Assembly: GCA_047975265.1 (NCBI GenBank)
Contig: JBKEDE010000042.1
Location: 16,543-80,542, forward strand
DNA from: Flavobacteriales bacterium
Lineage (GTDB): Bacteria > Bacteroidota > Bacteroidia > Flavobacteriales > UJ101
DNA: 64,000 nucleotides
Direction of reading: 5' to 3'
Part shown: positions 1 through 25,013 of the stretch, piece by piece
How positions within the stretch are numbered: the stretch's first letter is position 1
Layout: each line of letters starts with the position of its first letter
Program-made: the position numbers and the translations under genes
The notes under the pieces: generated by a model
Database searches by the model: none
Seen by the model: the letters and a program-made list of their open reading frames with translations, nothing else
Told to the model about the DNA's origin: nothing

Positions 1-746
1 ATTCTTCAAATAGTTCAGCAGGATTAATTTTAAATTGTAGCATTTGAGCAGTCTTTCTACCTCCGTCACCGCCTTTTCTCTGCATTGTAATTCTACCTAT
101 TTTGAAATTCCCTCTACTTGTTATTTCTATTTCTCCATTACCAAAAAAGTTTAAACAGTAATTCATTGGCTTTAGAACCCACCTTGCAGAATTATCTACT
201 TTTTGAGCAACTAGCATCCATTCAGCTGAAAACTTTCCTCTTCCTTTCAAAATATCGCTTATAATAAGTGATTTGTTGTTATTTAGCCAATTAAGTAGTA
301 TTTTTTGGTCAGACTCACTAAATTCATTAGCAAATGTTCTTCTCAAGTCCACTCGGGTTTTGAATTAATGGTAAAATTTCTCCAGTATATTGTTTTAATA
401 GATTAGAAACGTTAGTTGGTATATTCCACATCTCAATATACTTATCAATCCATCTTTTATCTATTTGATTAAACCCTTTTAAATTACTAACAAGTTTAAC
501 TTGAATGTTTTCTACATCAATAGCTTCTTTTAGCTTAATAGTAATTTGTACTTGTATGTCAGCTTTGAATCCAGACAGCACAACGGCTTTAACATATTCG
601 ATTTCTTTAATGTCATATTGCATTAAACTCAACCAATGCTGATCCTCAGTATCAGTTTGCCAATTGTTGAATTTTTGAACTATGTCCTTCTCGTTCTTGA
701 ATCCGTTTTTGGCTGTTTGAGAGCCTAACTCTTGATTGTCTGTCAT
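1..746 (-). pseudogene. Type II restriction endonuclease, presumed GCGC-specific (HinP1I/MspI-like), split by a frameshift; 3' end runs off the window
   Basis: ORF 327..746 (139 aa) stops at 327. The frame offset by one nt is open from 364 to position 1 (about 121 codons: ...LRRTFANEFSESDQKILLNWL...GRITMQRKGGDGGRKTAQMLQFKINPAELFEE). It lies directly downstream of, and overlapping, an M.HhaI-like methyltransferase. The two parts together give about 247 aa. Confidence 0.6.
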
Positions 747-1746
747 TGTATTGAATTGTCTTTGATATTTCTTTTAAAATAAATTGTAATGTATTAATAG
801 AAACACTATTTCCAAATTGTTTTTGAGCTTCGGTTATACTTTTGGGTAGAATAAAATCTTCAGGAAACCCTTGAATTCTTGCACATTCTCTTGGTGACAA
901 CTTTCTAATTATATCGCCTATTTTATACAGTCCTGTTTTAGAACCTACACCACCTCCGTGTGCGGACAAAGTAATTGCATGACCACTTGGATGATAAATT
1001 CTTTCTCCTTGACCTCCTTTATTTACTTTACCTATTTGAATAGGTTTGTTTGGTAGGTCAATTTCATTGAAAATGTTTTTTGTCAGTTTATATTCTTTAT
1101 AAATAGATATATCTTCTCTTTCAATGATTTTAGCATTGTCAGGTTTTGACTCTAAAATTTCTTCAAGTGAAGAAAACAAATTAAGATTAGGAAAAAAAAA
1201 CTTAACCTGTTTAAAATCATTTTTGTTAAAACCAACTATATAAATTCTTTCTCTATTTTGAGGTAGACCAAAGCTACTTGTATTTAAGACCTTATAAAAA
1301 ACTTTATAATTCAAACTTTCAAGTGTTTCAATTACAATTTTTAATGTGTTACCATTATTATGTCTTACAAAATTTTTCACATTTTCAAGTAAAAGAATTT
1401 TTGGTTTATGATAATCGACGATACGAGCTATATCAAAAAATAATGTTCCTCGAGTATCTCCAAATCCTTTTTGTTTACCGGAAATCGAGAAAGCTTGACA
1501 AGGAAAACCACCACATAATATATCGTGCTTCGGTATTTCTTGCTCTTTAATTTGAGTAATGTCTCCTTTGGGTTTTATATGATGGTTTAATTCATAAACT
1601 TTCGATGCTTTTTTATCTATCTCAGATGCAAAAACACAATTAGCTCCAAATGATTCTAAGGCGTAATGAAAACCACCAATTCCAGCAAAAAGGTCAATAA
1701 AATTTAAACCTTTTAATGTTTTATTATGGTTCTCTATATTTAGCAT
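652..1746 (-). CDS. DNA (cytosine-5)-methyltransferase, M.HhaI-like (predicted GCGC)
   Basis: C5-MTase motifs are present: FIDLFAGIGGF (I), GGFPCQAFS (IV), ENV (VI), QNRERIYIVGF (VIII), GNSVSI (X). It is collinear with M.HhaI as I recall it, including the target-recognition region (KGGQGERIY...ITLSAHGGG). Confidence 0.95.
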   Translation of the reverse strand: MLNIENHNKTLKGLNFIDLFAGIGGFHYALESFGANCVFASEIDKKASKVYELNHHIKPKGDITQIKEQEIPKHDILCGGFPCQAFSISGKQKGFGDTRGTLFFDIARIVDYHKPKILLLENVKNFVRHNNGNTLKIVIETLESLNYKVFYKVLNTSSFGLPQNRERIYIVGFNKNDFKQVKFFFPNLNLFSSLEEILESKPDNAKIIEREDISIYKEYKLTKNIFNEIDLPNKPIQIGKVNKGGQGERIYHPSGHAITLSAHGGGVGSKTGLYKIGDIIRKLSPRECARIQGFPEDFILPKSITEAQKQFGNSVSINTLQFILKEISKTIQYNDRQSRVRLSNSQKRIQEREGHSSKIQQLAN

Positions 1747-3130: not shown

Positions 3131-4321
3131 TTATCCTTGATTAAAACCATTGGCTAAGGCAATTTCGAGAATGGATTTTTCTATGGCTTTCCCTAAATCA
3201 TCTTCGGTATTGGGATTGTCTTTTTGTTGAGTTTTTATAAATCCTGCTCTCTTTTTGGATAATTCTTTTATTTCCTTTTGAATTTTTTCTCTCTCATCCT
3301 TTTTCTTTTTGATGTATGCTTCTTTTTCTTCCTTTGTTCTTCCTTTGAGTTCTTCCGGTAAAGCGGTTTCCTCTAAATCTTCAAGAACAGCTTTGTTTTC
3401 TTCATATTTATCTACTAAATCCCATGAACTATTTTTGTAGGCATTCTTTTTTGACTTTGCAACGATTCTTTCTACCTTATTTTGTTTTGAAATACTTTCT
3501 GCATTACTATCTTGTACCGATTGCAATTCCTTTTTTTCGTAACCGATTGTTCCATAACCAACGTATGTATCATTTAATTTTGAGTTGTATAAATCGATTT
3601 GGTCATCATAAGGTGTTACGATATAATGTATTTTTCTATTGGAATCTATATTAAAATACTTTCCGTTTCCTAGTACAGCACCCTCTTTCCATTGCAAATT
3701 AATTCCTTCTTGTTTGTCTCCACAAAAAATAGTATTTACATAAATATTATTATGAACCACATCTGAAATAGCTTCTCTATAATCTACACCACCTTGGTTA
3801 AATCCTTCGTTACCAGCAATGTAAATCAATTTCATACTTTTTGTATTATCATCCCAATCTAACTGATTTTTAGAGGCTTTAATTACAGCACCACAATATT
3901 CATTTCCTCCGTTAGTTCTCAGAGCAAATAATTTTTCAGAAATTAAATCCAAGTCGGTCGTTAACGGAGTTACCTGACGGATATAATTCGTATCTTTTGA
4001 AAGTCCACTATTTCCGTATTCGTATAATGAAATTTGAATATCCGGTGAATGTCCTTTGTACTTTAAAGTGGTCAGCGTGTTGACAATATTCCATAATCGA
4101 GATTTTGCTTGGTCAATGAGTCCATCCATAGAGTTGGATGTATCCAATAACAAAGCTACCTGAATAGAATTTTCAGCTTTGACAGGAGTTTCAATCGGTT
4201 CTGTATCATTCTTTATCAAAACAATATTATCGGATTGTTTTTTAGGATTTTCACAAGAAAGCATCAAAAGTGGTAAAGAAGTCATCAAAACAACACTTAA
4301 TTTTTGGCTTAGATTTTTCAT
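3131..4321 (-). CDS. von Willebrand factor type A domain lipoprotein
   Basis: Signal peptide with lipobox (LMLSC), MIDAS motif DTSNSMDG, and a Lys/Glu-rich coiled-coil C-terminus. Confidence 0.8.
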   Translation of the reverse strand: MKNLSQKLSVVLMTSLPLLMLSCENPKKQSDNIVLIKNDTEPIETPVKAENSIQVALLLDTSNSMDGLIDQAKSRLWNIVNTLTTLKYKGHSPDIQISLYEYGNSGLSKDTNYIRQVTPLTTDLDLISEKLFALRTNGGNEYCGAVIKASKNQLDWDDNTKSMKLIYIAGNEGFNQGGVDYREAISDVVHNNIYVNTIFCGDKQEGINLQWKEGAVLGNGKYFNIDSNRKIHYIVTPYDDQIDLYNSKLNDTYVGYGTIGYEKKELQSVQDSNAESISKQNKVERIVAKSKKNAYKNSSWDLVDKYEENKAVLEDLEETALPEELKGRTKEEKEAYIKKKKDEREKIQKEIKELSKKRAGFIKTQQKDNPNTEDDLGKAIEKSILEIALANGFNQG

Positions 4322-8450: not shown

Positions 8451-9557
8451 ATGAAAAAAGTATTATTATCAGTATTTACCTTAGCAGGGATTATTGTATT
8501 TGCTCAAGCAGATGGGTTACCGGCTAACGCTGACGCAGGAAAATGTTATGCTAAATGTGTTACACCGGATGTATGGGAAGACCAAACAGAAACTGTTATG
8601 GTAAAACCGGCATACACTACTTTGGAAATTATTCCTACTCAATATGAAACCCGAACAGAAACGGTTGAAATAAAACCGGCTTCTAAAAAGTATATTTACG
8701 TACCTGCTGAATATAGAGAAGAAAGCGTTCCTTATGTAAAAAAGGAAGGATATAACCAATTAGAAATTATTCCTGAACAATTTTCACCTTCTTCACAAAC
8801 TGTTGAGATGCGTTCTGCTACAGAAGGATGGGAATTTAAAGGTTATAAAGCAGATTGTACCGGAGTTTCTAAAGAAGATTGTAGAGTGATGTGTTACTCT
8901 AAAACGCCTGCTGTATATAAGGATGTTCCTACACAAACGAAAGTAAAAGACCAAACAACTATTTCCAATCCGGTTTCTGAGCAAACAGCTGCTTATACAA
9001 GATTAGTAGAAGTTTCTCCTGCTCGTACCGATGTAATTGAAATTCCGGCTGAGTATAAAGAAATTACAAAAACCGTTTTGGTAAAAGATGAAACAACTAT
9101 TTCAACAAACCATGATGCAAAATATGAAACCGTTACAAAACGGGTGTTAGTTCAGCGAGGAGGTGCTACCGAATGGAAAGAAGTTCCTTGCGACGGTCAA
9201 GTAGCAGGGCAAATTTTACCAATTTATTACGATACGGCTTCTGCTGCATTACGTCCTAAATCAAAACAAATTATTGATGAATATATTTACTCTAAATTGA
9301 TTGCAGACCCAAATGCTACTGCTGAAATTTCTTCTCATACAGATTATAGAGGTGATGACGCCATGAATCAAGATTTATCTGAAAGAAGAGCTAAGTCTGT
9401 TGTGGAGTATTTAATATCTAAAGGTATTTCCAAAGATCGTTTGGTTGCAATTGGATACGGTGAAACAAAACCTGTTAATAACTGTACCAGTGCTTCTTCA
9501 GGTTGTTCAGCTTCTGAATTACAGAAAAACAGAAGAACCGAGTTTAGAATTTATTAA
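8451..9557 (+). CDS. OmpA-family peptidoglycan-binding protein with repetitive N-terminal region
   Basis: Signal peptide. Repeated P-A/E-x-Y...T-x-T/V modules (PAYTTLEIIP, PAEYREESVP, PAVYKDVP, PAEYKEITKT, AKYETVTKRV). C-terminal OmpA domain (SSHTDYRGDDAMNQDLSERRAKSV...NRRTEFRI). Confidence 0.85.
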   Translation: MKKVLLSVFTLAGIIVFAQADGLPANADAGKCYAKCVTPDVWEDQTETVMVKPAYTTLEIIPTQYETRTETVEIKPASKKYIYVPAEYREESVPYVKKEGYNQLEIIPEQFSPSSQTVEMRSATEGWEFKGYKADCTGVSKEDCRVMCYSKTPAVYKDVPTQTKVKDQTTISNPVSEQTAAYTRLVEVSPARTDVIEIPAEYKEITKTVLVKDETTISTNHDAKYETVTKRVLVQRGGATEWKEVPCDGQVAGQILPIYYDTASAALRPKSKQIIDEYIYSKLIADPNATAEISSHTDYRGDDAMNQDLSERRAKSVVEYLISKGISKDRLVAIGYGETKPVNNCTSASSGCSASELQKNRRTEFRIY

Positions 9558-9613
9558 ACACAACTGGTTGTTTTTCAGCTGTGTGTTTAAAACATATCTA
9601 TTTAAATAAAGAT

Positions 9614-9654
9614 AAAAACAATGGAGACGGACAAAAGTTTCCATTGTTTTTTTT
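9614..9654. terminator. Rho-independent terminator (bidirectional hairpin)
   Basis: 9-bp stem AACAATGGA / TCCATTGTT (9617-9625 and 9640-9648), with an A-run upstream and a T8 run downstream. Confidence 0.75.
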
Positions 9655-9766
9655 ATATTTTGAACTGATAAAATTAATAGATGCAAAAACTCAACAATAT
9701 TTACCATATGATAAAGCAAAACATTACCATTATCCTACAAAAAATATAGGATTGCTAATTAGTATA

Positions 9767-9810
9767 TTTTGGTGTAGCCAAGAAATTGCTGATGATTAGT
9801 GCAACACCTA
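9767..9810 (-). repeat. 44-bp perfect inverted copy of rodA coding segment 24055..24098
   Basis: The reverse complement of 9767..9810 (TAGGTGTTGCACTAATCATCAGCAATTTCTTGGCTACACCAAAA) is identical to 24055..24098. Identity ends abruptly on both sides. Confidence 0.9.
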
Positions 9811-10061
9811 AATTGTCTTTTTTCCTGCTCTTTGAAACAAGAAATAGCAGAGCAAGATAAGTTATTAATTAAGATTTTAGATGTAAATGTATGTGTTTGA
9901 ACTGATACGCCGATCTTTCTATTCATCCTGAAAATAAAAGCCTTATTACTTATGACGGTAAAATTGATAAAATAGATGAGTAAGATTGTATAAATCTACT
10001 AAGAAAGTGTTTTGATAAACGTTATTTTCAAAAATACATTACTTTTACTCAAAGAAAAAAT

Positions 10062-11330
10062 ATGATTTCCCATTTACAAAAACGAGATTTAAAACATCTC
10101 TGGCATCCCATAACACAGCATCAACTAATAGATAAACATTTAGTTATAAAAAAGGCAAAAGATGTTTTTTTATACGACGAAAATGACCGACCCTACATAG
10201 ATGGTTTTTCTTCCTGGTACACTTGTTGTTATGGGCATTGCAACGAAATTATTATTCAAAAAGCATATGAAAGTTTACAACAGTTTAGCCATATCCCTTT
10301 TGTTGGATTAACACATCAGCCTGCTATTGAACTTTCGGAATCGTTAATATCTATTTTACCTGAGAATCAGCAAAAAATATTTTTTTCAGAAAACGGTTCT
10401 ACGGCAGTGGATTTAGCTATTAAAATGGCACTGCAATATTTTCATAATCAAAATAGAAAAAGAACCAAAATTATTGCTTTTGAGAATGCCTTTCATGGTG
10501 ATACATTTGGTGCAATGTCCGTATCTGATTCACCTATTTATCATCAAGCATTTAAAGATTTTTTTATAGAAGTTATTCATGTTCCTACACCTAATGAGTC
10601 TAATTTTCCTCAAATCAGGGAACAATTTTATAAGTTGGTTTCTTCTCAAGAGGTTGCCTGTTTCATTTATGAACCTTTGGTTCAGGGAGCCAATTGTATG
10701 AAAATGTACGCCTCTTGTTTTTTAGATGAATTGATTCAAATGGCACAAAAATACCAAGTATTGTGCATTGCAGATGAGGTTATGACTGGTTTTGGAAAAA
10801 CAGGAAAAAAATTTGCTTCGGATTACTTAAAGACTAATCCGGATATTATTTGTTTGGCAAAATCGTTAACGGGCGGTATAACGCCGATGGCTTTAACAAC
10901 TTGCTCTGAAGAAGTTTTCAATGCTTTTTTAAGCAATGATATTACAAAAGGATTGATGCACGCCCATACCTATTCTGCAAATCCATTAGGATGCTCAGTT
11001 GCAAAAGCTTGTATCGATTTGTTGATTTCTGATGAAATGCAGCGTAATATTTCACGTATTTCATATCAAAATCAACTTTTTGCACAAGAAATTAAAAATC
11101 ATCCTAAGGTAAAGAACATTAGATCTTTAGGCGTGATTCTTGCTTTTGAATTTGATATTAAAATGGAACTATATGGAAAAAAGAGAGATAAACTATATCA
11201 TTTTTTTATGGAGCAAGGAATCTTTTTACGCCCTCTGGGAAATACCATTTACATTCTTCCGCCTTTTATTATTCATAACGAAGAATTAAACCACATATAT
11301 AATGCTATACGATTGTTATTAAGCGAATAA
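10062..11330 (+). CDS. bioA: Adenosylmethionine-8-amino-7-oxononanoate aminotransferase
   Basis: Class III aminotransferase. The N-terminus (HLWHP.TQ), ADEVMTGFGKTGK (PLP lysine region) and a length of 422 aa are typical of BioA. Confidence 0.88.
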   Translation: MISHLQKRDLKHLWHPITQHQLIDKHLVIKKAKDVFLYDENDRPYIDGFSSWYTCCYGHCNEIIIQKAYESLQQFSHIPFVGLTHQPAIELSESLISILPENQQKIFFSENGSTAVDLAIKMALQYFHNQNRKRTKIIAFENAFHGDTFGAMSVSDSPIYHQAFKDFFIEVIHVPTPNESNFPQIREQFYKLVSSQEVACFIYEPLVQGANCMKMYASCFLDELIQMAQKYQVLCIADEVMTGFGKTGKKFASDYLKTNPDIICLAKSLTGGITPMALTTCSEEVFNAFLSNDITKGLMHAHTYSANPLGCSVAKACIDLLISDEMQRNISRISYQNQLFAQEIKNHPKVKNIRSLGVILAFEFDIKMELYGKKRDKLYHFFMEQGIFLRPLGNTIYILPPFIIHNEELNHIYNAIRLLLSE

Positions 11331-11377
11331 AAAAAACGTAATACATTGATTAACAATATAATTACGGTTTTTATTTG

Positions 11378-11462
11378 TACTCGGGGCGGGACTTGAACCC
11401 GCACGGACGCAATGTCCACTGGATTTTAAGTCCAGCGTGTCTACCAATTCCACCACCCGAGC
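11378..11462 (-). tRNA. tRNA-Leu (anticodon UAA)
   Basis: Cloverleaf read by eye: acceptor GCTCGGG/CCCGAGT, anticodon stem CTGGA/TCCAG with loop CT-TAA-AA, long variable arm, T-arm GCGGG-TTCAAGT-CCCGC. CCA is not encoded. Confidence 0.9.
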
Positions 11463-11606
11463 ATCCTATATTTTTAATTCAGACGAATTTTAAATCTATT
11501 TTTAGAATATTTCTCGCTGTTTGCGGTTGCAAATATAAGTTAGTTTTTAGTTCCTCCAAAGTTTTTCAATATTTTTTTACCAACCGCAACAAAATTTACA
11601 TCTATA

Positions 11607-14204
11607 TTATTTTCCTAACATTTTTTTAATTTCATTCAGTTTCATCAATGCTTCTACCGGTGTTAAAGTATCAATATCTGTATGAAGAATTTCTTCTCGA
11701 ATACACTCCAAAACAGGGTCATCTAACTGAAAAAAACTTAATTGCAGATTATCTTCTGTAATTTTTTTTGTTTTTTCTTTTGTCTTTCTCTTCGAAGGTT
11801 TTTCTTCTAATGTATTCAGTATTTCTTCTGAACGTTTAATTACAAAACGAGGCATTCCTGCCATTTTAGCTACATGAATACCAAAGCTGTGGTTGCTACC
11901 TCCTTTTACTAATTTTCGTATAAAAAGAATACTTTGATCAATTTCTTTAACACTAACATTATAGTTTTGAATACGAGGAAAAGATAGGGTCATTTCATTT
12001 AATTCGTGATAATGCGTAGCAAAAAGTGTTCGTGCTTTTGTAGGATGTTCATGAATGTATTCTGAGATAGCCCAGGCAATGGAAATACCATCGTAAGTAC
12101 TGGTTCCTCGACCTATTTCATCCAAAAGAATTAAACTTCGTTCAGATAGATTATTTAAAATACTGGATGTTTCATTCATCTCTACCATAAAAGTAGATTC
12201 TCCCAATGAAATATTGTCTGAAGCTCCAACGCGGGTAAAAATTTTATCCACCAATCCTATTTCAGCATTTTTTGCCGGAACATAGCTCCCGATTTGAGCC
12301 ATCAAAACAATAAGGGCTGTCTGTCGAAGCAATGCCGATTTCCCGGACATATTTGGTCCTGTAATCATAATAATTTGTTGTTCCGTTTTATTAAGAACCA
12401 AATCATTTGCTACATAAGAATCTCCTATGGGCAACTGTTTTTCAATTACAGGATGGCGACCGTCTTTGATAATCAAATCAAAACCATTGTTCATGATTGG
12501 TTTTACATAATTATTTTCACGTGCAGCAATTGCAAAAGACATTAAACAGTCAATTTGAGAAATAATAGAAGCATTTAACTGAATCGGTTTGATAAATGCC
12601 AATAATTCAATTAACAGGTCATTAAAAATAGTGGTTTCCAATTCAAAAATCCGTTCTTCAGCTCCCAAAATTTTGGTTTCATACTCCTTTAATTCTTCTG
12701 TAATATAGCGCTCGGCATTTACCAAAGTTTGTTTACGAATCCACTCTTCCGGAACTTTATCTTTATGCGTATTACGTACTTCGATATAATAGCCAAAAAC
12801 ATTGTTAAAAGCAATTTTTAAACTGGGAATACCGGTATGTTCTGCTTCCCGTTCTTTTAGTTTTTCCAAATAATCTTTACTAGAAAAAGCCATCTCTCGC
12901 AAATTATCTAATTCTTCATTATATCCTTCTGCAACAACGTTTCCTTTAGAAATATTGTGAGGAGCTTCCAGATGAATTATTTTTTGTATTTTTTGGCGTA
13001 AGGTATCCAATGTTAATAGCTGATCTTTTAACGTGGCTATACTCTTATCCAATATAGTATTTAATACTTTTTCCAATTTTGGAATAATATCCAATGATTG
13101 TTTTAAAATTAATACTTCACGCGGTGTAATCCGTCCTGTGGCTACTTTCGAAACCAATCGTTCTAAATCAGCAATTTGCTCCACTAAAGAAATAATTTCG
13201 TAACTTTTTTCTTCATGTTTTAAAAATTGTGTTACAATATTGTGTCGCTGTTGAATAGCTAGTAAATCTTTTAGAGGCAATGCAATCCAACGTTTTAACA
13301 TGCGTCCTCCCATTGGAGAAATGGTTTTATCTATAACATCCAGAAGAGTAACCGCTTGATCATTTGGAGAGTATAACAACTCCAAATTTCGAATGGTAAA
13401 TCCATCCATCCAAATAAAACGATCTTCTTCTATGCGGGCAATATTGGATATATGCTGTGCTTTCTCGTGGTGTGTATCTGATAAATACGTTAAAACCGCT
13501 CCGGCTGCAATTGTACCCAATTTTAATTCTTGAATACCAAAACCTTTTAATGTTTTAGTATTAAAATGTTGTGTTAATTTTTCGTAGGCATAATCTTCTT
13601 GAAAAACCCAATCTTCTAATCCAAAAGAATAAAAACGCTCACCTATTAACTGTTCATAACGTGTTTTGTATTGTTTTTGATACAGAATTTCGCTCGGGTT
13701 AAATCCGTTAATCAGTTTTGATATATATTCTTCGCTTCCTTCAGCTACAAGAAATTCTCCGGTTGAGATATCCAAAAACGATATTCCCAATAGATTTTTA
13801 TTAAAATGAATCGAAGCTAAGAAGTTATTTGATTTGGAGTTAAGAACTTGGTCATTTAAGGTTACTCCGGGCGTAACCAATTCAGTTACACCACGTTTTA
13901 CGATTCCTTTTGTTGCCTTTGGATCTTCCAATTGATCGCAAATAGCTACCCGAAGCCCTGCTCGAACCAATTTAGGCAAATACGTATTTAATGAATGATG
14001 AGGAAATCCTGCTAATTCATTATCTGAATCAGAACCGTTAGAACGTTTGGTTAAAACAATTCCGAGTATTTTAGAACATTTTACGGCATCTTTTCCAAAG
14101 GTTTCGTAGAAATCGCCCACCCGAAATAACAGCATTGCATCAGGATACTTTGCTTTAATGGTATTGTATTGTTTCATTAACGGGGTTGCTTTCTTCTTGT
14201 CCAA
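11607..14204 (-). CDS. mutS: DNA mismatch repair protein MutS
   Basis: 865 aa, with the N-terminal mismatch-binding motif (GDFYETFG), Walker A GPNMSGKS and [12 protein letters not shown]. Confidence 0.97.
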
Positions 14205-14223
14205 AATGGTATGATTTTTCTAT

Positions 14224-14231
14224 TAACTTTG
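14224..14231 (+). promoter_or_regulatory. TAnnTTTG -7 box (TAACTTTG)
   Basis: Exact motif 30 nt upstream of the ATG at 14262. Confidence 0.4.
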
Positions 14232-14261
14232 CTAAGTTAAAGAAACGAATCTGATAATAAA

Positions 14262-14789
14262 ATGCGAAAATTAAAAAATAGCGAATTAAAACGTTTGAGC
14301 GTTCAAGAATTTAAAGAAACTAAGAAACTGCCTATAACAATCATTTTAGATAATATCAGGAGTCTTTATAATGTAGGGAGTGTTTTTAGAACTTCAGATG
14401 CTTTTTTAGTTGAAAAAATTTATCTGTGTGGAATTACGGCTTCTCCTCCTCATAAAGAAATTCAGAAAACAGCTTTAGGTGCTACGGAAAGTGTGGAATG
14501 GGAATATATTAGAGATATTATACCTCTTCTTGAAAAATTAAAACAAAAAAATTATCATCTTATCTCTGTAGAGCAAGCAGAAAAAAGTATAATGCTTCAG
14601 GATTTTAAGTTGGATAAAAATAGTTCGTATGCTTTAATTTTTGGGAATGAAGTAAAAGGGGTTCAACAACAGGTTGTTTCTAAGTCGGATACGGTTATAG
14701 AAATTCCTCAATTGGGAACAAAGCATTCGTTAAATATATCGGTTAGTGTGGGAGTTGTTCTTTGGGATTTTTCCAGAATCTTCTTATAA
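14262..14789 (+). CDS. TrmH/SpoU-family RNA 2'-O-methyltransferase
   Basis: SpoU motifs: NVGSVFRTSDAF, LIFGNEVKGV, IPQLGTKHSLNISVSVG. Confidence 0.85.
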   Translation: MRKLKNSELKRLSVQEFKETKKLPITIILDNIRSLYNVGSVFRTSDAFLVEKIYLCGITASPPHKEIQKTALGATESVEWEYIRDIIPLLEKLKQKNYHLISVEQAEKSIMLQDFKLDKNSSYALIFGNEVKGVQQQVVSKSDTVIEIPQLGTKHSLNISVSVGVVLWDFSRIFL

Positions 14790-14810
14790 TCTTTTAAATT
14801 TTCATATAAA

Positions 14811-14838
14811 AAAATCCCATTCAGCTGAATGGGATTTT
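14811..14838. terminator. Bidirectional rho-independent terminator between convergent genes
   Basis: Perfect palindrome AAAATCCCATTCAGCTGAATGGGATTTT with an A-run on the left and a T-run on the right. Confidence 0.75.
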
Positions 14839-14861
14839 TTCTATTTAGATAAATTCTTGTT

Positions 14862-16328
14862 TTAATTTGGCATAACCAATTTACGGTCTGATCTTAATAG
14901 TACTCTACGGTTTGCTCTGTGCTCATCGTTGGTACATTTAACTCCGTTATGACAGTGGTTAAGTATTTCAGATTCTCCTTTACCAACTGCTTGAATTTTT
15001 GAAGCAGCTGCTCCTTGAGATACTAAGTAAGCCTTAATAGCTTCAGCTCTTTTCTGAGATAATTTTTCATTATAAGCATCCGATCCTCTGGCATCTGTAT
15101 GACCTTCTAATACAAAATTAGCATCTGGGTTTGCAATAATAGCTCTTGCTGCTTTTTTCAATAGGTTGTTATACTCAGGATACCATCTTGCTTCGTTGTA
15201 GTAGAACTCAACATCAGATAAGTTAATTATATCTGTTTCAACAACTACAGGAAGTGGTTCTATCGGTGCTTTTTCAATAGGACATCCTTTACCTAAAGTT
15301 CCATTTTCTACACCAGGTACTACCACACACTTGTCTTCTAAATCAATAAATCCATCTAAGTCAACATCCAAAGCCTTACCACATCCATCAACACGTGCTC
15401 CCGCTAAAGTTCCTAATTCACAATCCCACTCATCACATACTCCGTCGTTATCTTCATCAATACATTCAAATCCTCCTGAAGCCAATACTTGTTGAGAATA
15501 TAGTGCTTGGAATGGATCGTACCATTTTTCATGTTCGTTATGTTTTCCAATTTTATAGATGATACCTAATGAATTAGTCCAAACATTATCGGAACCGTCA
15601 TTATCATTTCCATTCTTACTACTTACTCCTAAAATTGATGAACCATCCCACTGCTCATCTCCGGTCATTATATACATGGATTTCAATTCAAGATCAAGTT
15701 TTTGGCTTAATTTATACTGTAATCCTAATCCAACTTGAGAAAACATAGACTCAAAGCCCATGTCTACTTTGGTTAAATTTCCATCGGTAGTATGAAATCG
15801 ATTTGTCAAGTCATTATTACCTGTTACTTCATAACCGATAACACCTATTCCTCCATAGCCGTGTAATGCCCACGCATAACGCGATTTGTTATCTACTCTT
15901 CTAAAAATAGATGAAAAATTGACATCTGCTAATAAGGAAACAGCTTGATAGGATGTTTGTGTAGCCCAGTAATCTCCCGAAACAACTGTAGCAATATTAT
16001 CAGTTGTTTGAGACACTTGTCCCATCTGTCCTAATAATTGAATACCAAAAACATGGTTAATATGTTTTGTTATTCCTAATTGGACATCATAACCTAATTC
16101 ATTCTTTTCTCCTCCAAATAGTTTAAGGGAATTTAATTCTCCTTTAACACCCAATGCGGCTCCTCCATGCAAAGAAACAGACCAAGAATTGAATTTCCTT
16201 TGGTCTTTCGTAAACTTAACGTAATTTTCGTATTCCTGTTCACTACCGTAGTATTGTTCTATTTTTTCTTGTGCAGTAACACTGAACAAAACCCCTAAAG
16301 TCAGTAAACTCGATATAATTCTCTTCAT
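14862..16328 (-). CDS. OmpA-family outer membrane protein with thrombospondin type-3-like Ca-binding repeats
   Basis: Signal peptide and a beta-barrel-like N-terminal half. Asp-rich repeats (DEDNDGVCDEWD, DVDLDGFIDLED). C-terminal OmpA domain (EGHTDARGSDAYNEKLSQKRAEA...NRRV). Confidence 0.85.
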   Translation of the reverse strand: MKRIISSLLTLGVLFSVTAQEKIEQYYGSEQEYENYVKFTKDQRKFNSWSVSLHGGAALGVKGELNSLKLFGGEKNELGYDVQLGITKHINHVFGIQLLGQMGQVSQTTDNIATVVSGDYWATQTSYQAVSLLADVNFSSIFRRVDNKSRYAWALHGYGGIGVIGYEVTGNNDLTNRFHTTDGNLTKVDMGFESMFSQVGLGLQYKLSQKLDLELKSMYIMTGDEQWDGSSILGVSSKNGNDNDGSDNVWTNSLGIIYKIGKHNEHEKWYDPFQALYSQQVLASGGFECIDEDNDGVCDEWDCELGTLAGARVDGCGKALDVDLDGFIDLEDKCVVVPGVENGTLGKGCPIEKAPIEPLPVVVETDIINLSDVEFYYNEARWYPEYNNLLKKAARAIIANPDANFVLEGHTDARGSDAYNEKLSQKRAEAIKAYLVSQGAAASKIQAVGKGESEILNHCHNGVKCTNDEHRANRRVLLRSDRKLVMPN

Positions 16329-16369
16329 AGCTAACTTTTTTAATATTTAATTTTAACTTTTTTATTCTT

Positions 16370-17008
16370 TTAATCTAAAATCTTTACAAAAGTATAATTG
16401 TTATTTATACTGGCAAATATTTTTGATATAATTTTTTCTTTTACAGTAAAATTTTTTACAAAATCAATATTTGAAACATCTAATATTAAGATATTTAAGT
16501 ATGTGTGTTCTTTGATGTACTTCATATACGACTTGTTGATTTTATCTAAATAATTTCGGTTGATATTTTGTTCGTATCTACGTCCTCTTTTTTGGATGTT
16601 CTCCAATAATCGGTCTGTTGTTTGGTAAAGGTAAACATATAAATCGGGTTTTATCAAATCAGAATACATGATGTGAAAAAATTTACGGTATAATTTATAT
16701 TCATCTTCGGTTAATGTTATCTCTGAGAAGATAAGGGATTTAAAAACGTAATAATCAGCAACGGTCAGTTGTTTAAACAAGTCTCTGCTTAAAAGTTTTT
16801 CGTTTAGCTGCTGGAAACGTTCTGCAAGGAAAGACATTTCTAAAGGAAATGCATATTTTTCCGGAGCTTCATAAAACTTTGGTAAAAAGGGATTTTCTTC
16901 AAACTTTTCTAACACCAACTTAGCATCGTGTTTCTCGGCAATCATTTTAGCCAAGGTTGTTTTTCCGGAACCTATATTTCCCTCTATAACGATAAAGTTA
17001 TTTTTCAT
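16370..17008 (-). CDS. Deoxynucleoside kinase
   Basis: P-loop GNIGSGKTTLA, the ...EKFEENPFLPKFY motif, and a dNK-family length of 212 aa. Confidence 0.85.
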   Translation of the reverse strand: MKNNFIVIEGNIGSGKTTLAKMIAEKHDAKLVLEKFEENPFLPKFYEAPEKYAFPLEMSFLAERFQQLNEKLLSRDLFKQLTVADYYVFKSLIFSEITLTEDEYKLYRKFFHIMYSDLIKPDLYVYLYQTTDRLLENIQKRGRRYEQNINRNYLDKINKSYMKYIKEHTYLNILILDVSNIDFVKNFTVKEKIISKIFASINNNYTFVKILD

Positions 17009-17499
17009 AATATACTGACTTTATTCTTGTCATTACATGCTTTTAATAGTGCTATGACATTCTTGTTATACACAGGATGTATCTTTTGAGGACACAACTC
17101 TAACAATGGCATTAAAACAAATTTTCTATGATGCATACTAAGGTGCGGAATATTTAATATTTTTTGTCTATATAAAAAATCATTATAATAGATTATATCT
17201 ATATCTATGATTCTTGGCTGATATCCTTCAAAAAAAGAATTATGAACAGATCCCATTTTCTGTTCAATAATTTTAATTTTGTTTAACAATTGCAACGGAC
17301 TCATCTTTGTAAGCACTTCTATGGCATTATTTAGAAACAAATCCGATTCAAATCCCCAAGATTCTGAAGAATAAAAATTAGATGCTTGAAGAATTTTTCC
17401 TACATACACTTCAATATATTCTATGGCAGCTTCTATATTTTTCTTTTTATCTCCCATATTACTGCCTAATGATAAATATGTAACATTTTTTTGATTCAT
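17005..17499 (-). CDS. folK: 2-amino-4-hydroxy-6-hydroxymethyldihydropteridine diphosphokinase
   Basis: HPPK signature (YLSLGSNMGD...PRIIDIDII...HP...RKFVL.PL). Has a 4-nt ATGA overlap with the downstream kinase gene. Confidence 0.9.
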   Translation of the reverse strand: MNQKNVTYLSLGSNMGDKKKNIEAAIEYIEVYVGKILQASNFYSSESWGFESDLFLNNAIEVLTKMSPLQLLNKIKIIEQKMGSVHNSFFEGYQPRIIDIDIIYYNDFLYRQKILNIPHLSMHHRKFVLMPLLELCPQKIHPVYNKNVIALLKACNDKNKVSIL

Positions 17500-17524
17500 A
17501 TACTATAATAATGGTAAATTTAAA

Positions 17525-17532
17525 TACTTTTG
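17525..17532 (+). promoter_or_regulatory. TAnnTTTG -7 box (TACTTTTG)
   Basis: Exact motif 17 nt upstream of the sppA ATG. Confidence 0.45.
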
Positions 17533-17549
17533 CATAAAATTAAATAAAC

Positions 17550-19298
17550 ATGAAATCATTTTTTAAAACGGTATTGGCTGTTATTTTAGGATTAACAATT
17601 GTTATTTTTTTGCCGATTGTTTTTTTCGGAATATTCAGTGGGTTAAGCTCTGAAGACTCAAGCTACGATGTTGCCGAAAATTCCATTCTCGAAATCGATT
17701 TTAAAACACCTATCGTTGAAAGTTATGATGATATTCAATTCAGTTTTACAAATTTTGAACCAACAGACCGTTTGTCTTTTTATAGTTTATTGTCAGCTAT
17801 TCAAAAAGCTAAAGAAGATGAAAATATTAAAGGGATTTCTTTAAAATTAAATGGAAACACAACAGACTATGCCCAGGCACAAGCCATACGAAATGCCTTG
17901 CTTGATTTCAAGTCCTCCAACAAATTTGTTTACGCCTACGGAAACAACCTGTCTCAACGGGATTATTACATAGGCTCTGTTGCGGATTCTTTATTTGTTT
18001 CGCCTCTGTCCAATATTGAATTGACAGGAATTAGTGTTGAAATCACATTTTACAAAAAGCTTTTTGACAAACTTGGTATAGAATATGAAATTATTAAACA
18101 CGGTAAATATAAATCTGCTGTAGAGCCTTATTTTTTAGAGCAAATGACTCCGGAAAGTAAGGAGCAAACACAAATTCTTATTGACGATATATGGAAGAAC
18201 CTTTCTTCCGAAATGTCACAATCAAGAAATTTATCAATAGAACAATTTAACTTTTTGACTGACAGCCTGAAAGCGTTTAATGCTAAAAGTGCTCTGTCAG
18301 CCAATTTAATTGATGGAATCAAATATGAAGACCAGTATAAAAAATTGATAGGTATTGATGATACAGACAAAGAAAATGTTCAAAAACCTATCGTTTCTGT
18401 TTCCAATTATTTATTGTCTATTCAAAAACCTTTTAATAAAGATCAAATAGCTGTAATTTATGCTTCAGGAGCTATCACATCAGGAAATAAACCTGACGGC
18501 ATTCAAGATCAAAATATGATTAAAAAAATACGGACAGCTAAGAATGAACCATCGGTAAAAGCCGTTGTTTTAAGAGTTCATTCTCCGGGAGGAGATGTTG
18601 CTGCGGCTGAAAGAATTTTACATGAGCTTCGCCTTTTGCAAAAAGAAAAGCCTTTGATTGTGTCCTTTGGAGGTGTTGCTACTTCCGGAGGGTATTACAT
18701 AGCCGGAGCTGCTGATACCATTGTATCTTCGCCCAATACGATTACAGGGTCCATAGGCGTTTTTGGAGCTATTCCGAATGTAAAAAAATTAGCTGAAAAA
18801 ATAGGTGTAACTACGGATGTTACAGGAACTAATGCTAATGCTAACCTGTTTTCACTTTTAAACGGAACTACGCCCAAATTTAGAGAAGTTATTCAAGAGA
18901 GTATCGAAGATGTGTATGATTTATTTCTGAGTAATGTTGCCCAAAATCGTAAGGTTTCAAAAGCTGAGATTGATTCTCTTGCTCAAGGGCGAGTCTGGTC
19001 AGGAGTTAAAGCGAAAGAAAATGGATTGGTAGATGTTTTGGGAGGTTTAGATACAGCTATTACACTTGCTGCAGAAAAAGCGGGAATAGAAAATTTTGAT
19101 CTTCTTGAACTTCCAAAGAAAAAATCAGAGTTTGAATTGATTATGGAAATGTTTGGGAGAAAAGAAGGAATGGAAGTAGAGACTTTGATAGGTGAAAAAT
19201 TAGGACCTGAAATTTATAATTCATATAAAGAGTTTGATTATTTTAAAAATAGTGGCATTATCCATCTTAAAACACCTTATATCATTCAAATAAAATAA
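17550..19298 (+). CDS. sppA: Signal peptide peptidase SppA, 67K type
   Basis: N-terminal TM segment and two S49 peptidase repeats (VLRVHSPGGDVAAAE, GGVATSGGYYIA). Confidence 0.9.
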   Translation: MKSFFKTVLAVILGLTIVIFLPIVFFGIFSGLSSEDSSYDVAENSILEIDFKTPIVESYDDIQFSFTNFEPTDRLSFYSLLSAIQKAKEDENIKGISLKLNGNTTDYAQAQAIRNALLDFKSSNKFVYAYGNNLSQRDYYIGSVADSLFVSPLSNIELTGISVEITFYKKLFDKLGIEYEIIKHGKYKSAVEPYFLEQMTPESKEQTQILIDDIWKNLSSEMSQSRNLSIEQFNFLTDSLKAFNAKSALSANLIDGIKYEDQYKKLIGIDDTDKENVQKPIVSVSNYLLSIQKPFNKDQIAVIYASGAITSGNKPDGIQDQNMIKKIRTAKNEPSVKAVVLRVHSPGGDVAAAERILHELRLLQKEKPLIVSFGGVATSGGYYIAGAADTIVSSPNTITGSIGVFGAIPNVKKLAEKIGVTTDVTGTNANANLFSLLNGTTPKFREVIQESIEDVYDLFLSNVAQNRKVSKAEIDSLAQGRVWSGVKAKENGLVDVLGGLDTAITLAAEKAGIENFDLLELPKKKSEFELIMEMFGRKEGMEVETLIGEKLGPEIYNSYKEFDYFKNSGIIHLKTPYIIQIK

Positions 19299-19378
19299 AA
19301 TTATTTTCAGAAACTGAGTTTTTCAAAAAAAAGACATAAATTTACACGATTTATCAATTTTTAGAAAAAGAAACTAAT

Positions 19379-20404
19379 ATGGGGTTATTTGATTTCATGA
19401 CTCATGATATTGCAATCGATTTAGGGACAGCGAATACGTTAATTATCCATAATAATAAAATTGTGGTGGACAGTCCTTCTATTGTCGCCATAGATAGAAG
19501 GACTGAGAAGTTAATTGCCGTAGGGGAAAAAGCAAAACAAATGCAAGGAAAAACGCATGAAAATATCAAAACCATACGACCGTTAAAAGATGGTGTAATC
19601 GCTGATTTTGACGCTTCCGAAGGAATGATACGAGAATTTATCCGAAGTATTCCGGCTTTGAAAAAGCGTTTTTTTTCTCCTTCTTTAAGAATGGTCATTT
19701 GTATTCCTTCCGGAATTACTGAAGTAGAAAAAAGAGCCGTAAAAGATTCTGCCAGCCACATCAAAGCTAGAGATGTAAAATTAATTTATGAGCCGATGGC
19801 GGCGGCCTTAGGTGTAGGGATTGATGTTCAACAACCCAAAGGAAACATGGTTATTGATATCGGAGGAGGAACAACGGAGATTGCGGTGATTGCCTTAGGC
19901 GGAATTGTCTGTGATAAATCAGTTAAAGTTGCAGGTGATGTTTTCACGGCTGATATAGCTTATTATATGCGGACACATCATAATTTATATGTTGGAGAAA
20001 AAACGGCTGAAGAAATTAAAATTGATGTTGGAGCAGCTATAGAGGATTTGCCTCATCCTCCTGATGATTTGCCTGTGCAAGGGCGTGATTTACTGACCGG
20101 AAAACCGAAAGAAATTGTTGTAAGCTATAAAGAAATAGCCCAAGCACTTGACAAATCTATTCTTCGGGTAGAAGATGCTATTATGGAAACACTTTCCATT
20201 ACTCCACCGGAGTTAGCTGCCGATATTTATAATACAGGAATTTACATGGCGGGAGGAGGTTCTTTATTAAGAGGTTTGGACGAACGAATTTCTAAAAAAA
20301 CTGATTTGCCCGTCTATATTGCGGAAGATCCTTTAAAAGCGATTGTAAGAGGCACAGGAATAGCCCTTAAAAATATTGATAAATTTAGTTTCTTAATGTC
20401 TTAA
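19379..20404 (+). CDS. mreB: Rod shape-determining protein MreB
   Basis: Actin-fold motifs DLGTANT and DIGGGTTEIAVI, with high similarity to MreB along the whole length. Confidence 0.97.
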   Translation: MGLFDFMTHDIAIDLGTANTLIIHNNKIVVDSPSIVAIDRRTEKLIAVGEKAKQMQGKTHENIKTIRPLKDGVIADFDASEGMIREFIRSIPALKKRFFSPSLRMVICIPSGITEVEKRAVKDSASHIKARDVKLIYEPMAAALGVGIDVQQPKGNMVIDIGGGTTEIAVIALGGIVCDKSVKVAGDVFTADIAYYMRTHHNLYVGEKTAEEIKIDVGAAIEDLPHPPDDLPVQGRDLLTGKPKEIVVSYKEIAQALDKSILRVEDAIMETLSITPPELAADIYNTGIYMAGGGSLLRGLDERISKKTDLPVYIAEDPLKAIVRGTGIALKNIDKFSFLMS

Positions 20405-20418
20405 GACTAAGTTGAAGC

Positions 20419-21246
20419 ATGTTTCAAATTATACAATTTATACAAAGAAGAAGTCATTTTTTTGTTTTTCTTATATTAGAAATAGTTGCTGTTGCATTAA
20501 TAATCAGGAGTTATTATACACATACTATTTATTTTTTAAACTCAGCAAATTATATTTCGGGAAGTTTATATTCTGCTGAAAATAATTTTTCTAAATATCT
20601 TACGTTAGATTCTGAAAATCAAAAACTTTTAGAAGAAAATACTGTTTTAAAAAATAAAATTTCTATACTTGAAAATATAAATGCCTCTTCCGGAAGTGCC
20701 ATCCAAATTGTGGATTCTACCCAATTTCAACGGTACAAATACATTCCTGCACGCATTATATCAAACACGGTTTCAAAAAAGAATAATTATCTTAGTATTA
20801 ATAAAGGGAGACGAGACCAAATAACCCAAGATATGGCTGTAATTACAGACAAAGGCGTTATCGGAATAACCGATTTTACCACAAATAAATTTACTCGGGT
20901 GATGTCTCTTCTTAACGAAAATACGAGAATCAACAGCAATATAAAAAACAAAGGGGTTTTTGGAACTGTAGAATGGAATGGGGTAGATTATCGCTATGTT
21001 CAGCTTAGGGATATACCGAAGCACCTGAAGATCGAAATTAACGATACGGTTGTAACAGATATCCGTTCTAATATATTCCCTTCTGGAATACCTATTGGAA
21101 TTATAAAAGATTTTAAATTGGAAGAAGGAACTGATGAATACGTTGCCAACGTAGAACTTTTTGAAGATTTTGTAAAAGTTGAAAATGTTTATGTTGTAAC
21201 CGATTTTGATAAAATTGAAACCGACAGCCTGCATGTTAGACCTTAG
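20419..21246 (+). CDS. mreC: Rod shape-determining protein MreC
   Basis: N-terminal TM segment, coiled coil (ENQKLLEENTVLKNKI), C-terminal beta domains, and position after mreB. Confidence 0.88.
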   Translation: MFQIIQFIQRRSHFFVFLILEIVAVALIIRSYYTHTIYFLNSANYISGSLYSAENNFSKYLTLDSENQKLLEENTVLKNKISILENINASSGSAIQIVDSTQFQRYKYIPARIISNTVSKKNNYLSINKGRRDQITQDMAVITDKGVIGITDFTTNKFTRVMSLLNENTRINSNIKNKGVFGTVEWNGVDYRYVQLRDIPKHLKIEINDTVVTDIRSNIFPSGIPIGIIKDFKLEEGTDEYVANVELFEDFVKVENVYVVTDFDKIETDSLHVRP

Positions 21247-23702: not shown

Positions 23703-23720
23703 ATGTAAGTTGTTTATATT

Positions 23721-25013
23721 TTGCAGAATAAAAGTAGAAATATCATTTTTAATATAGACTGGTTCGTTATCTTTCTATATATTTTAATTGCCGGGTTTGG
23801 AGTTTTGTCTATCAATGCTGTTGATCATGCTCACGCTTTAAAACAGATTATATGGGTTTCTACAAGTATTCCTATTATTATTATCACTTGTTCTTTAAAT
23901 CAGTCTTTTTACGAACGTTTTTCAGGCCTTTTTTATTTAATATGTATTTTATTACTTGCCGGATTATTTGTTTTTGGAGAAACTATTAACGGAGCTACGG
24001 CATGGTATTCCTTTTTTGGGTTTTTTAGTATTCAACCCACCGAATTTTCAAAAATAGGTGTTGCACTAATCATCAGCAATTTCTTGGCTACACCAAAACT
24101 GGAAATGAACAAACCGTCCACTTTATTCATTGCTTTAGGCTATTTGGTAGTTCCGTTAATCTTAATTAAACTTCAGCCTGACGATGGGTCTGTCTTGGTA
24201 TTTTCCGCATTTTTTATAGGATTATTGGTCTATCGCGTTTGGATGGTTAAGCAACTTTTTTTAATCGGAATTACTTTTTTAATACTATTCATTTTGGGGA
24301 TTGCCTACTCTGATCTTATCCAATATTTTTATAATAATTTCTATATTCTGATTATAGGAATTTCATGTATTACACTCATAATCTTTATTATTTTCAGATT
24401 TGTTTTCTATATTAACAAACCAACTATTTACTTAATGGCTGTTATGGGCATATTGTTCTGTATCGGAACTATTTTTGCATCCGAAGCCATTTTCAGCAAT
24501 TTAAAACCCCACCAAAAAGACCGTATTGAGATTTTATTTTTGGATGATACTAATAAAAAAATCAGAAATGAAAAAAACGGATATAATTTATATACAGCCA
24601 AATCGGCTATTGCTTCAGGAGAGTTGTACGGCAAAGGATATTTAAAAGGTGATATGCCTAAAGGGAACATTGTTCCGGAACAAGAAACAGACTATATTTT
24701 TACCGTAATCGGAGAAGAATGGGGTTTTATGGGTAGCTCGGTTTTTATCATGATATACGGAATCTTTTTATTACGGTTATTTTGGCTTGCACATAGGCAA
24801 CGTACAATATTTTCCAGTTATTTTGGTTATTCTGTTGCCGGCATTTTTACCGTACATTTTATTATAAATATTGCCATGGTTATGGGAATTTTTCCAACTA
24901 TTGGAATCCCTTTACCTTTTTTAAGCTACGGAGGTTCTTCTTTATGGGGATTTACTCTAATGCTTTTTATTATGATTCGCTTAGATGCTGAAAGAATGCA
25001 AGTTTTACGTTAA
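23721..25013 (+). CDS. rodA: Rod shape-determining protein RodA (SEDS glycosyltransferase); TTG start
   Basis: Polytopic SEDS-family protein (QPTEFSKIGVAL, PEQETDYIFTVIGEEWGF, PLPFLSYGGSS) directly after mrdA. Confidence 0.92.
   Translation: MQNKSRNIIFNIDWFVIFLYILIAGFGVLSINAVDHAHALKQIIWVSTSIPIIIITCSLNQSFYERFSGLFYLICILLLAGLFVFGETINGATAWYSFFGFFSIQPTEFSKIGVALIISNFLATPKLEMNKPSTLFIALGYLVVPLILIKLQPDDGSVLVFSAFFIGLLVYRVWMVKQLFLIGITFLILFILGIAYSDLIQYFYNNFYILIIGISCITLIIFIIFRFVFYINKPTIYLMAVMGILFCIGTIFASEAIFSNLKPHQKDRIEILFLDDTNKKIRNEKNGYNLYTAKSAIASGELYGKGYLKGDMPKGNIVPEQETDYIFTVIGEEWGFMGSSVFIMIYGIFLLRLFWLAHRQRTIFSSYFGYSVAGIFTVHFIINIAMVMGIFPTIGIPLPFLSYGGSSLWGFTLMLFIMIRLDAERMQVLR

Follow-up and report, generated by a model that had tools for sequence, protein, structure and literature searches.

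An exact 44-bp inverted copy of a rodA segment at the seam between an ompA-family gene and bioA in a Flavobacteriales genome: a probable templated insertion

The inverted templated-insertion signature is mostly documented in yeast and human genomes. Among small RNAs, DicF is a defined transcript that acts with Hfq through short, imperfect pairing at the translation start. Short inverted templated insertions at breakpoints are a signature of template switching of the MMBIR type, whose best-characterised events copy from within ~100 bp (PMC8421209); templated inverted insertions are likewise a signature of fold-back repair at breaks (PMC11724301). The spacers of host-associated bacteria hold junk left by gene loss (PMC3164680), and species-specific sRNAs have been shown to evolve from non-syntenic, rearranged intergenic regions (PMC4350180). 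Here we compare with these systems a spacer found in the window (the whole stretch of 64,000 nucleotides that was analysed), which comes from a Flavobacteriales bacterium; of its named relatives, Flavobacteriaceae bacterium UJ101 and MAGs from the UJ101 family of GTDB stand nearest.

The first-pass annotation had called the reverse complement of positions 9767-9810 identical to an internal segment of rodA at 24055-24098, and the two indeed agree at 44/44 nt (100%), forming inverted copies 14.2 kb apart. A short-word blastn search of the 504-bp spacer against the rest of the window returned this match at E=1.2e-19, all other matches in that search being of at most 13 nt with E>=0.39; the only 31-mers that occur twice in the window belong to the 44-bp repeat and to a terminator palindrome at 14809-14840. 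The ends of the repeat are as abrupt as had been described, with identity dropping to background at both edges and unrelated sequence in the flanks. The spacer itself spans 9558-10061 (504 bp), between the OmpA-family gene (PF00691) and bioA (PF00202), as annotated, and the copy read in the rodA sense continues ...ATPK-YTN-stop, again in agreement with the earlier reading. The statement that the spacer lacks a credible ORF also stands, with the amendment that a DUF4251 gene has left its 3' end in the right third (9867-9983). Both the terminator hairpin (9614-9651) and the T6 run (9818-9823) are present where they had been placed; the small hairpin has the arms given for it (ATCCTA at 9732-9737 and TAGGAT at 9747-9752), but its loop is of 9 nt and not the N7 loop of a hairpin at 9732-9750. 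The 44-mer is moreover a quasi-palindrome: GGTGTTGC-N22-GCTACACC closes positions 3-40 with a DNA MFE of -4.7 kcal/mol, so that the ends of the 44-mer coincide with the base of a hairpin. The features needed for what follows are these:

8451..9557, plus strand: OmpA-family outer-membrane protein gene, 368 aa, PF00691; left flank of the junction
9614..9651, no strand assigned: intrinsic ompA terminator with a 15-bp stem and two T-rich flanks
9652..9766, no strand assigned: AT-rich ompA-side spacer, with the left breakpoint at its right end (~9746-9766)
9767..9810, minus strand: junctional patch, an exact 44-nt copy of rodA codons ~112-126, rodA-sense on the minus strand
9811..9866, no strand assigned: 56 nt of uncertain origin (D1), with a 9-bp hairpin preceded by T6
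9867..9983, plus strand: DUF4251 3' remnant, a pseudogene of about the last 40 of 164 codons (blastn, tblastn, Pfam)
9984..10061, plus strand: bioA leader with the probable proximal promoter TACTTTTA (~10041-10048, read by eye)
10062..11330, plus strand: bioA, adenosylmethionine-8-amino-7-oxononanoate transaminase, PF00202; first gene of the collinear block
23721..25013, plus strand: rodA, SEDS glycosyltransferase, PF01098, 430 aa; last gene of mreB-mreC-mreD-pbp2-rodA
24055..24098, plus strand: source segment inside rodA, encoding G-V-A-L-I-I-S-N-F-L-A-T-P-K

To the right of the copy, the closest syntenic relative is GCA_040777565.1, one 27.7-kb contig of which carries orf64-DUF4251-bioA-tRNA-Leu-mutS-trmH-ompA484-dNK-HPPK-sppA-mreBCD-pbp2-rodA in the order and orientation of the window at 9.9-25 kb; the amino acid identity between the two is 81% for BioA and 79% for RodA. 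In this genome the DUF4251 gene (164 aa) is intact, with 51 nt between its end and bioA, and it is the 3' end of this gene that survives in the window. A blastn comparison of the corresponding region (L012:730-932) with window 9867-10099 gave 67% identity (E=1.7e-24), a tblastn search with DUF4251 residues 112-164 matched window 9810-9980 (E=3e-8) with three in-frame stops, and the Pfam model PF14059 (DUF4251) matched just 9891-9965, at profile positions 110-133 of 133 and E=0.17. Within the remnant, 9880-9905 is a replaced, unalignable stretch of 26 nt with a TGA at 9903, and 9906-9983 retains 78% identity to GCA_040777565.1, as against 80% for bioA; this coding-like identity suggests either a recent loss of function or a retained promoter function. 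The interval 9811-9905 is much more diverged from that genome than 9906-9983. D1 (9811-9866) is 29% identical to it in a MAFFT alignment, and searches of the rest of the window, of the fetched loci and of viral contigs returned no match to D1; a weak DUF4251 similarity reaches into D1 by tblastn, with stops at 9858 and 9870, and the Pfam model does not cover it. The bioA leader aligns with the 51-nt DUF4251-bioA spacer of GCA_040777565.1 and includes a sigma-70-like site on the plus strand (10012-10040). Since the proximal promoter region of bioA seems to be conserved with that genome, the copy probably does not lie in the bioA leader.

The left side has a different affiliation. The OmpA orthologues are 88% identical in Flavobacteriaceae bacterium UJ101 and 82% identical in GCA_024449705.1, and in both relatives the genes after ompA are an ORF of 77-79 aa, an FtsX/MacB-type gene (minus strand) and namZ; bioA follows in neither. 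The post-ompA spacers of these two genomes align, if weakly, with window positions 9615-9745: identity is 62-66%, and the E of 1e-3 comes from a very small search space. No remnant of the small ORF that follows ompA in the relatives was found in the window spacer, and the ompA-side spacer (9652-9766) has no homology to the region upstream of DUF4251 in GCA_040777565.1. As a side observation, the neighbouring ompA gene of UJ101 is tandemly duplicated, the copy pair being listed as 100% identical over a 300-nt reference.

As the ompA-side similarity extends to ~9745 and the DUF4251 remnant begins at 9867, the seam can be placed at ~9746-9866, with the 44-mer inside it. The 44-mer is found at the breakpoint between segments that are non-adjacent in relatives, and it is an exact copy, with abrupt ends, of the same genome's own allele. 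On the evidence of these alignments, the 504-bp spacer is a lineage-specific rearrangement junction, and it is a mosaic of the ompA terminator, the ompA-side spacer, the rodA patch, the 56-nt D1, the decaying 3' end of DUF4251 and the bioA leader. We consider the 44-mer to be, probably, a templated “filler” insertion of recent date that was introduced in the course of illegitimate recombination or repair. Under this reading, an illegitimate recombination would have joined the region downstream of the ompA-family gene to the middle of the DUF4251 gene upstream of bioA, deleting the 5' two-thirds of the latter, and the patch would have been copied in inverted orientation from the genome's own rodA into the seam. 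Most likely, either the copying proceeded by replication-based template switching of the FoSTeS/MMBIR type or a hairpin-protected single-stranded rodA fragment was captured in break repair.

Against a templated insertion stands the distance of the rodA template, which lies 14 kb from the patch, the best-characterised events reaching no further than ~100 bp. The order of events may also have been more complex: as the remnant has stops and the unalignable 9880-9905, the truncation of DUF4251 may predate the perfect patch, and in that case the patch arrived later, was homogenised by gene conversion or is under selection. No rodA-like copy was found outside rodA in the loci fetched from relatives (L002, L006, L007, L011-L014). 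Viral contigs and JGI metagenomes likewise contained 0 matches each to a wobble-degenerate pattern of the rodA segment, and the pattern's sole match in the fetched loci was the Logan twin (see below) of rodA itself.

The allele carried by the copy bears on both its source and its age. The translation of the source segment runs IGVALIISNFLATPK / GVALIISNFLATPK. At this site, RodA has L-M-I-G-N-F in most close relatives and L-I-I-G-N-F/Y in two; the Ser of the LIIS of the window occurs in none of the close RodA relatives compared. As the spacer copy carries these lineage-specific LIIS residues, it derives from the lineage's own rodA allele; and since LIIS is specific to the lineage while the RodA protein is otherwise typical, rodA is the donor, its lineage allele having been copied. 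With respect to age, bioA of the window is 80.2% identical in nucleotides to that of GCA_040777565.1, with K4 = 0.78 at fourfold sites, and a neutral patch as old as the split would be expected to show ~22 differences from rodA; the number observed in the 44 nt is 0. Under neutrality, the copy would date to approximately the last 14% of the branch (95% bound). Because it is young enough, its perfect identity needs no selection. The rodA patch is probably both recent and devoid of a dedicated function.

The sharpness of the match also bears on a reading in which a longer stretch of rodA had been duplicated in inverted orientation and this partial paralogue was then eroded by deletions until the 44-mer alone was left. 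Where spacers contain gene fragments, these are commonly what is left of decaying pseudogenes (PMC3164680), and the tandem duplication of the neighbouring ompA gene in UJ101 would be in keeping with such an origin. However, decay would leave graded homology, in place of 44/44 identity falling to background at both edges; a word-7 blastn search of the spacer against the window detected nothing collinear beyond the 44 nt; and a fragment whose ends lie at the base of a hairpin is more readily explained by a discrete piece having been copied or captured than by erosion. We regard a decayed duplication as very unlikely.

To examine the gene content, every ORF of at least 150 aa was given an identity, drawn from Pfam, from precomputed annotation or from its translation. 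The 60 ORFs checked comprise housekeeping genes, among them ftsW of the dcw cluster as a second SEDS gene, and ORFs without a Pfam match; genes for a transposase, an integrase, an invertase or a reverse transcriptase, and cas genes, are absent from this set. Several classes of elements were considered and rejected. A mobile repeat (MITE, IS end or REP) does not fit, there being only two copies in the window, one of them coding sequence, and no significant TIRs flanking; a 146-nt inverted-repeat element of a relative, considered in regard to MITEs, is absent from the window. A CRISPR self-targeting spacer or RNA-guide locus was dismissed for lack of flanking direct repeats and of cas, TnpB or reverse-transcriptase ORFs, and a search for a plasmid origin of the spacer returned no match. 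The shorter repeats around the seam were equally set aside. The 13-mer ATTTTCAAAAATA (10024-10036 = 24044-24056), which abuts the rodA source, has the wrong geometry for template-switch microhomology, and both of its copies are ancestral, similar sequence being present in the bioA leader and rodA of GCA_040777565.1. The 12-mer at 9865-9876, the reverse complement of 24158-24169, lacks collinearity with the 44-mer, and a match of this kind is expected by chance; the 9-nt imperfect inverted repeats 9756-9764 / 9863-9871, taken as ends of an invertible or mobile unit, are at chance level in AT-rich DNA and are also inconsistent with the contig ends described below.

Independent data on the junction were obtained from the Logan per-sample k=31 contigs of SRR30067263 and SRR30067251, which are crab-gut DNA metagenomes of PRJNA1141481. 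The contigs of both samples are identical or nearly identical to the window, and two from SRR30067263 (L001 and L008) are exact substrings of it. The ompA-side contig of SRR30067263 runs through the first 30 nt of the spacer copy and stops there, where a branch would end a contig at k=31. On the rodA side, the contig terminates precisely with the repeat, its final base being 24098; from these ends it follows that the left junction is real in the reads of SRR30067263 and that the 44-mer branches there. The exact RodA protein is not on record in the Logan assemblies, which is consistent with rodA being broken at the repeat. The suspicion of an assembly artefact is thereby answered for one side: the left junction recurs in an independent k=31 assembly, but the right junction, between 9810 and 9811, is in no retrieved contig. 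Logan contigs covering 9797-9870, sought via small ORFs, are also not on record. The bioA-mutS contig starts exactly at 9871 in both samples, which carry slightly different strains; one of the two has four SNPs relative to the window in mutS, and both differ from the window at the homopolymer 11328-11335 (A7 vs A8). Nothing in the window accounts for a k=31 break at 9871, and its likeliest cause is a structural polymorphism in 9811-9870 or a co-assembly problem. The start at 9871 coincides with the start of the DUF4251 homology (9867). An RNA-seq explanation of the contig ends (a start at 9871 and termination after the copy) was discarded, the runs being DNA metagenomes.

These ends raise the question of a chimera, in which the junction of the ompA side with the copy (R') is real and the path from R' through 9811-9870 to bioA was threaded through strain variants in a co-assembly. 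The project behind related samples used MEGAHIT co-assemblies of many crab guts (bioRxiv 10.64898/2026.04.24.720673), and the gap in retrieved Logan contigs over 9797-9870, together with the start of the bioA contig at 9871 in two samples, points in this direction, as do the rodA-side contig, which crosses the repeat from end to end as though only one sequence led into it, and the homopolymer difference shared by both samples. De Bruijn assemblers, however, invent no junction k-mers, and therefore R'-D1 and D1-9871 must occur in some reads. Moreover, the flank to the right of the copy is not rodA, so that this is no simple mis-join through the repeat, L001 and L008 match the window exactly, and 250-nt reads could span the whole seam. 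A chimeric path thus appears highly doubtful.

The same branching enters into the proposal that the repeat is a recombination switch, with 9811-24054 inverting reversibly to give a phase-variable cell shape, or with the window representing one state of a recent inversion. The copies have the inverted orientation that this would require, their length is at or above the minimum for RecA-dependent exchange, and the per-sample assemblies branch at the repeat; this branching at k=31 is uninformative on orientation because all four junctions are shared. Against the switch, what lies between the copies is collinear with GCA_040777565.1 and runs in the same direction. As the order and orientation of bioA...rodA are the same in both genomes, the present orientation is ancestral, and an inversion of 9811-24054 is therefore not supported. 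Additionally, no invertase or site-specific recombinase is present among the 60 ORFs checked, and an inversion would truncate RodA after codon 126, destroying the gene for the rod-complex peptidoglycan polymerase. GC skew, tried as a test for a past inversion, tracks gene orientation and was uninformative. We therefore see next to no likelihood of a switch. The recombination scar suggested by the first-pass annotation survives as a seam that truncates DUF4251 and joins it to the ompA region, and is not supported as an inversion of 9811-24054. The 44-bp inverted copies could occasionally recombine, serving as an accidental substrate for a RecA-dependent inversion that splits rodA.

The other function that had been proposed is an antisense regulator of rodA. 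A trans-encoded RNA would pair with the rodA coding sequence, elicit RNase III-type cleavage and tune the level of RodA and with it cell shape. We judge such a regulator, which would be transcribed from a promoter of its own or by read-through of the ompA terminator, to be very unlikely. What commends it is the perfect 44-nt complementarity to the rodA mRNA and the fact that the copy is identical to rodA while the neighbouring 9811-9905 is poorly conserved or possibly polymorphic. It also lies downstream of an OmpA-family gene that may be well expressed, such that modest read-through could matter. There are precedents as well: new sRNAs can arise in rearranged intergenic regions (PMC4350180), and DicF-ftsZ exemplifies control of this kind over a cell-envelope or division gene (PMC5069750).

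The signals that would accompany such an RNA were nevertheless not detected, and beyond complementarity the promoter, terminator, fold, Rfam and relatives were all negative. The plus strand of 9400-10200 has no exact Bacteroidetes -7 box (TAnnTTTG), motif scans being weak evidence, and no sigma-70-like site precedes the copy, the sole one on the plus strand (10012-10040) lying downstream of it. A strong terminator stands 115 nt upstream of the copy; this hairpin, at 9614-9651, is the sole terminator-like site in 9400-10200, where shuffles predict 0.1. The T6 at 9818-9823 has no hairpin before it and instead precedes the hairpin at 9820-9860, the terminator scan finding just 9614-9651. The folds of the plus strand are not above those of shuffles (z = +0.69, -0.27, -0.30 and -0.76), and no Rfam family rises above noise. 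A structured sRNA was accordingly rejected, the minus-strand value of z=-2.6 stemming from two small hairpins unrelated to the 44-mer; so was a known RNA family, Rfam having given tRNA-Leu alone at gathering thresholds and terminator-like noise at E<=1. The weak Rfam matches at 9614-9651 are noise of this type. A spacer copy conserved in related genomes and co-varying with rodA, which had been put forward as a check, is not seen in the loci fetched from relatives, and in GCA_040777565.1 the site is occupied by an intact gene. The absence of the copy from these loci, its youth, which makes selection unnecessary for its identity, and the pseudogene and rearrangement seam, which accounts for its position without function, all argue against the regulator.

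An intermediate possibility is that the scar has been, or is being, co-opted, with antisense read-through lowering RodA or a reversible inversion switching rodA off. This is very improbable; if true, it would amount to a newly born elongasome control in this crab-gut lineage of Flavobacteriales, and the preservation of the 44-mer beside poorly conserved, perhaps polymorphic flanks would reflect selection. As a possible side effect of a templated insertion, transcripts reading through the ompA terminator would include a perfect 44-nt antisense to the rodA mRNA. If the templated-insertion reading holds, spacers can acquire a “perfect antisense” match that has no regulatory function, and this locus may serve as a cautionary case.

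Comparison with the known systems places the locus as follows. It shares with the invertible switches and shufflons of Bacteroidota the inverted repeats that bracket a segment; it differs from them in that no recombinase is nearby, the segment comprises 14 kb of housekeeping genes, one repeat sits in an essential-type gene, and inversion would inactivate a gene and not swap promoters or gene ends. If transcribed, it would resemble the DicF sRNA of the Qin prophage, which acts on ftsZ, as a trans RNA complementary to a core morphogenesis mRNA (PMC5069750); unlike DicF, the pairing would be 44 nt, perfect and deep in the coding sequence, the host belongs to Bacteroidota, and the public data found for this organism are all DNA metagenomes. 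With rearrangement-born sRNA genes it has in common a non-syntenic intergenic region produced by rearrangement, whereas transcription and a promoter were demonstrated there and neither here. Were the patch transcribed and found to affect RodA, it would represent the birth of an antisense regulator from a repair scar.

The DUF4251 gene, truncated at its 5' side and bordered on the left by a weakly similar stretch that contains in-frame stops, is typical of decaying pseudogene spacers; the rodA piece sets the locus apart from them by being perfect and sharply bounded. The best explanation for the rodA patch is one more case of a mutational signature that is already known. As in MMBIR/FoSTeS and fold-back repair, an exact inverted copy of tens of nucleotides from the same chromosome lies in a seam, with a second short stretch of unknown origin beside the copy (PMC8421209, PMC11724301). 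The differences are that the template is 14.2 kb away, as against ~100 bp, and that the setting is a bacterium, with the insertion fixed in a natural lineage, in place of yeast or human cells. If a templated insertion is the right reading, the locus would be a clean natural bacterial example of a short inverted templated insertion at a rearrangement seam, which, without being of broad significance, would be a marker of how the highly rearranged genomes of the UJ101 family are reshuffled.

Window positions 9797-9870, which overlap the right end of the 44-nt segment at 9767-9810 (the exact reverse complement of rodA 24055-24098), are missing from the per-sample k=31 assemblies (Logan contigs) of both crab-gut metagenomes, SRR30067263 and SRR30067251, and the bioA contig starts at exactly 9871 in both. 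The shared absence and common contig start suggest either a structural polymorphism or a problem of co-assembly immediately to the right of the 44-nt segment. Elsewhere in this region there is strain variation: the homopolymer at 11328-11335, just 3' of the bioA stop codon, is A8 in the window as against A7 in both samples, and SRR30067251 differs from the window by four SNPs in mutS (12459, 12834, 12881 and 12893), positions at which SRR30067263 is identical to the window. The Logan contigs also break at the palindrome listed below, which looks like a bidirectional terminator without a loop.

Features of the window considered here
652-1746, minus strand: C-5 cytosine DNA methylase gene (PF00145), adjoining ruvB
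14809-14840: perfect 32-nt palindrome, AAAAAATCCCATTCAGCTGAATGGGATTTTTT, between the convergent genes trmH (plus strand) and ompA484 (minus strand)
~24010-24030: T-rich run at rodA codons ~97-104, site of an extra Phe codon

Within the remnant of the DUF4251 gene left of bioA (9867-9983), a 26-nt stretch at 9880-9905, GATGTAAATGTATGTGTTTGAACTGA, stands in place of 23 unrelated nucleotides of the syntenic relative GCA_040777565.1 and is flanked by two well-aligned anchors; it may have arisen by local slippage or be a second small patch. The bioA leader (10024-10036) and rodA (24044-24056) share an identical 13-mer, ATTTTCAAAAATA, which in rodA directly abuts the source of the copied segment. 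Since the relative has similar sequence at both sites, both copies look ancestral, and the match seems to be a coincidence; nor does it fit a simple template-switch geometry. RodA of the window carries an extra Phe (WYSFFGFFSIQ versus WYS-FGSFSIQ in all close relatives), a lineage-specific insertion of one codon in the T-rich run, which precedes the copied rodA segment by about 25-45 nt.

No restriction-enzyme partner for the methylase was identified among the window ORFs scanned, and its neighbor, ORF 3131-4321 (396 aa), is without a Pfam match. At the ompA-family locus of the isolate Flavobacteriaceae bacterium UJ101 (CP016269), two tandem copies (10001-11107 and 11313-12419 of the extracted locus) are listed by the repeat finder as 100% identical across a reference of 300 nt that begins 15 nt upstream of each gene, which suggests a recent duplication or gene conversion.

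In GCA_040777565.1, the block orf64-DUF4251-bioA-tRNA-Leu is flanked on both sides by an inverted repeat:

Locus positions 1-146 and 2786-2931 (contig JBEVUX010437099.1): 146-nt inverted repeat, arms 97% complementary

This repeat is absent from the window, and the copy that separates tRNA-Leu from mutS represents an insertion by comparison with the window. Because terminal inverted repeats (TAGCTAAATTGATATAAAATG...) are apparent in that copy by eye, it looks like a MITE of ~150 nt.
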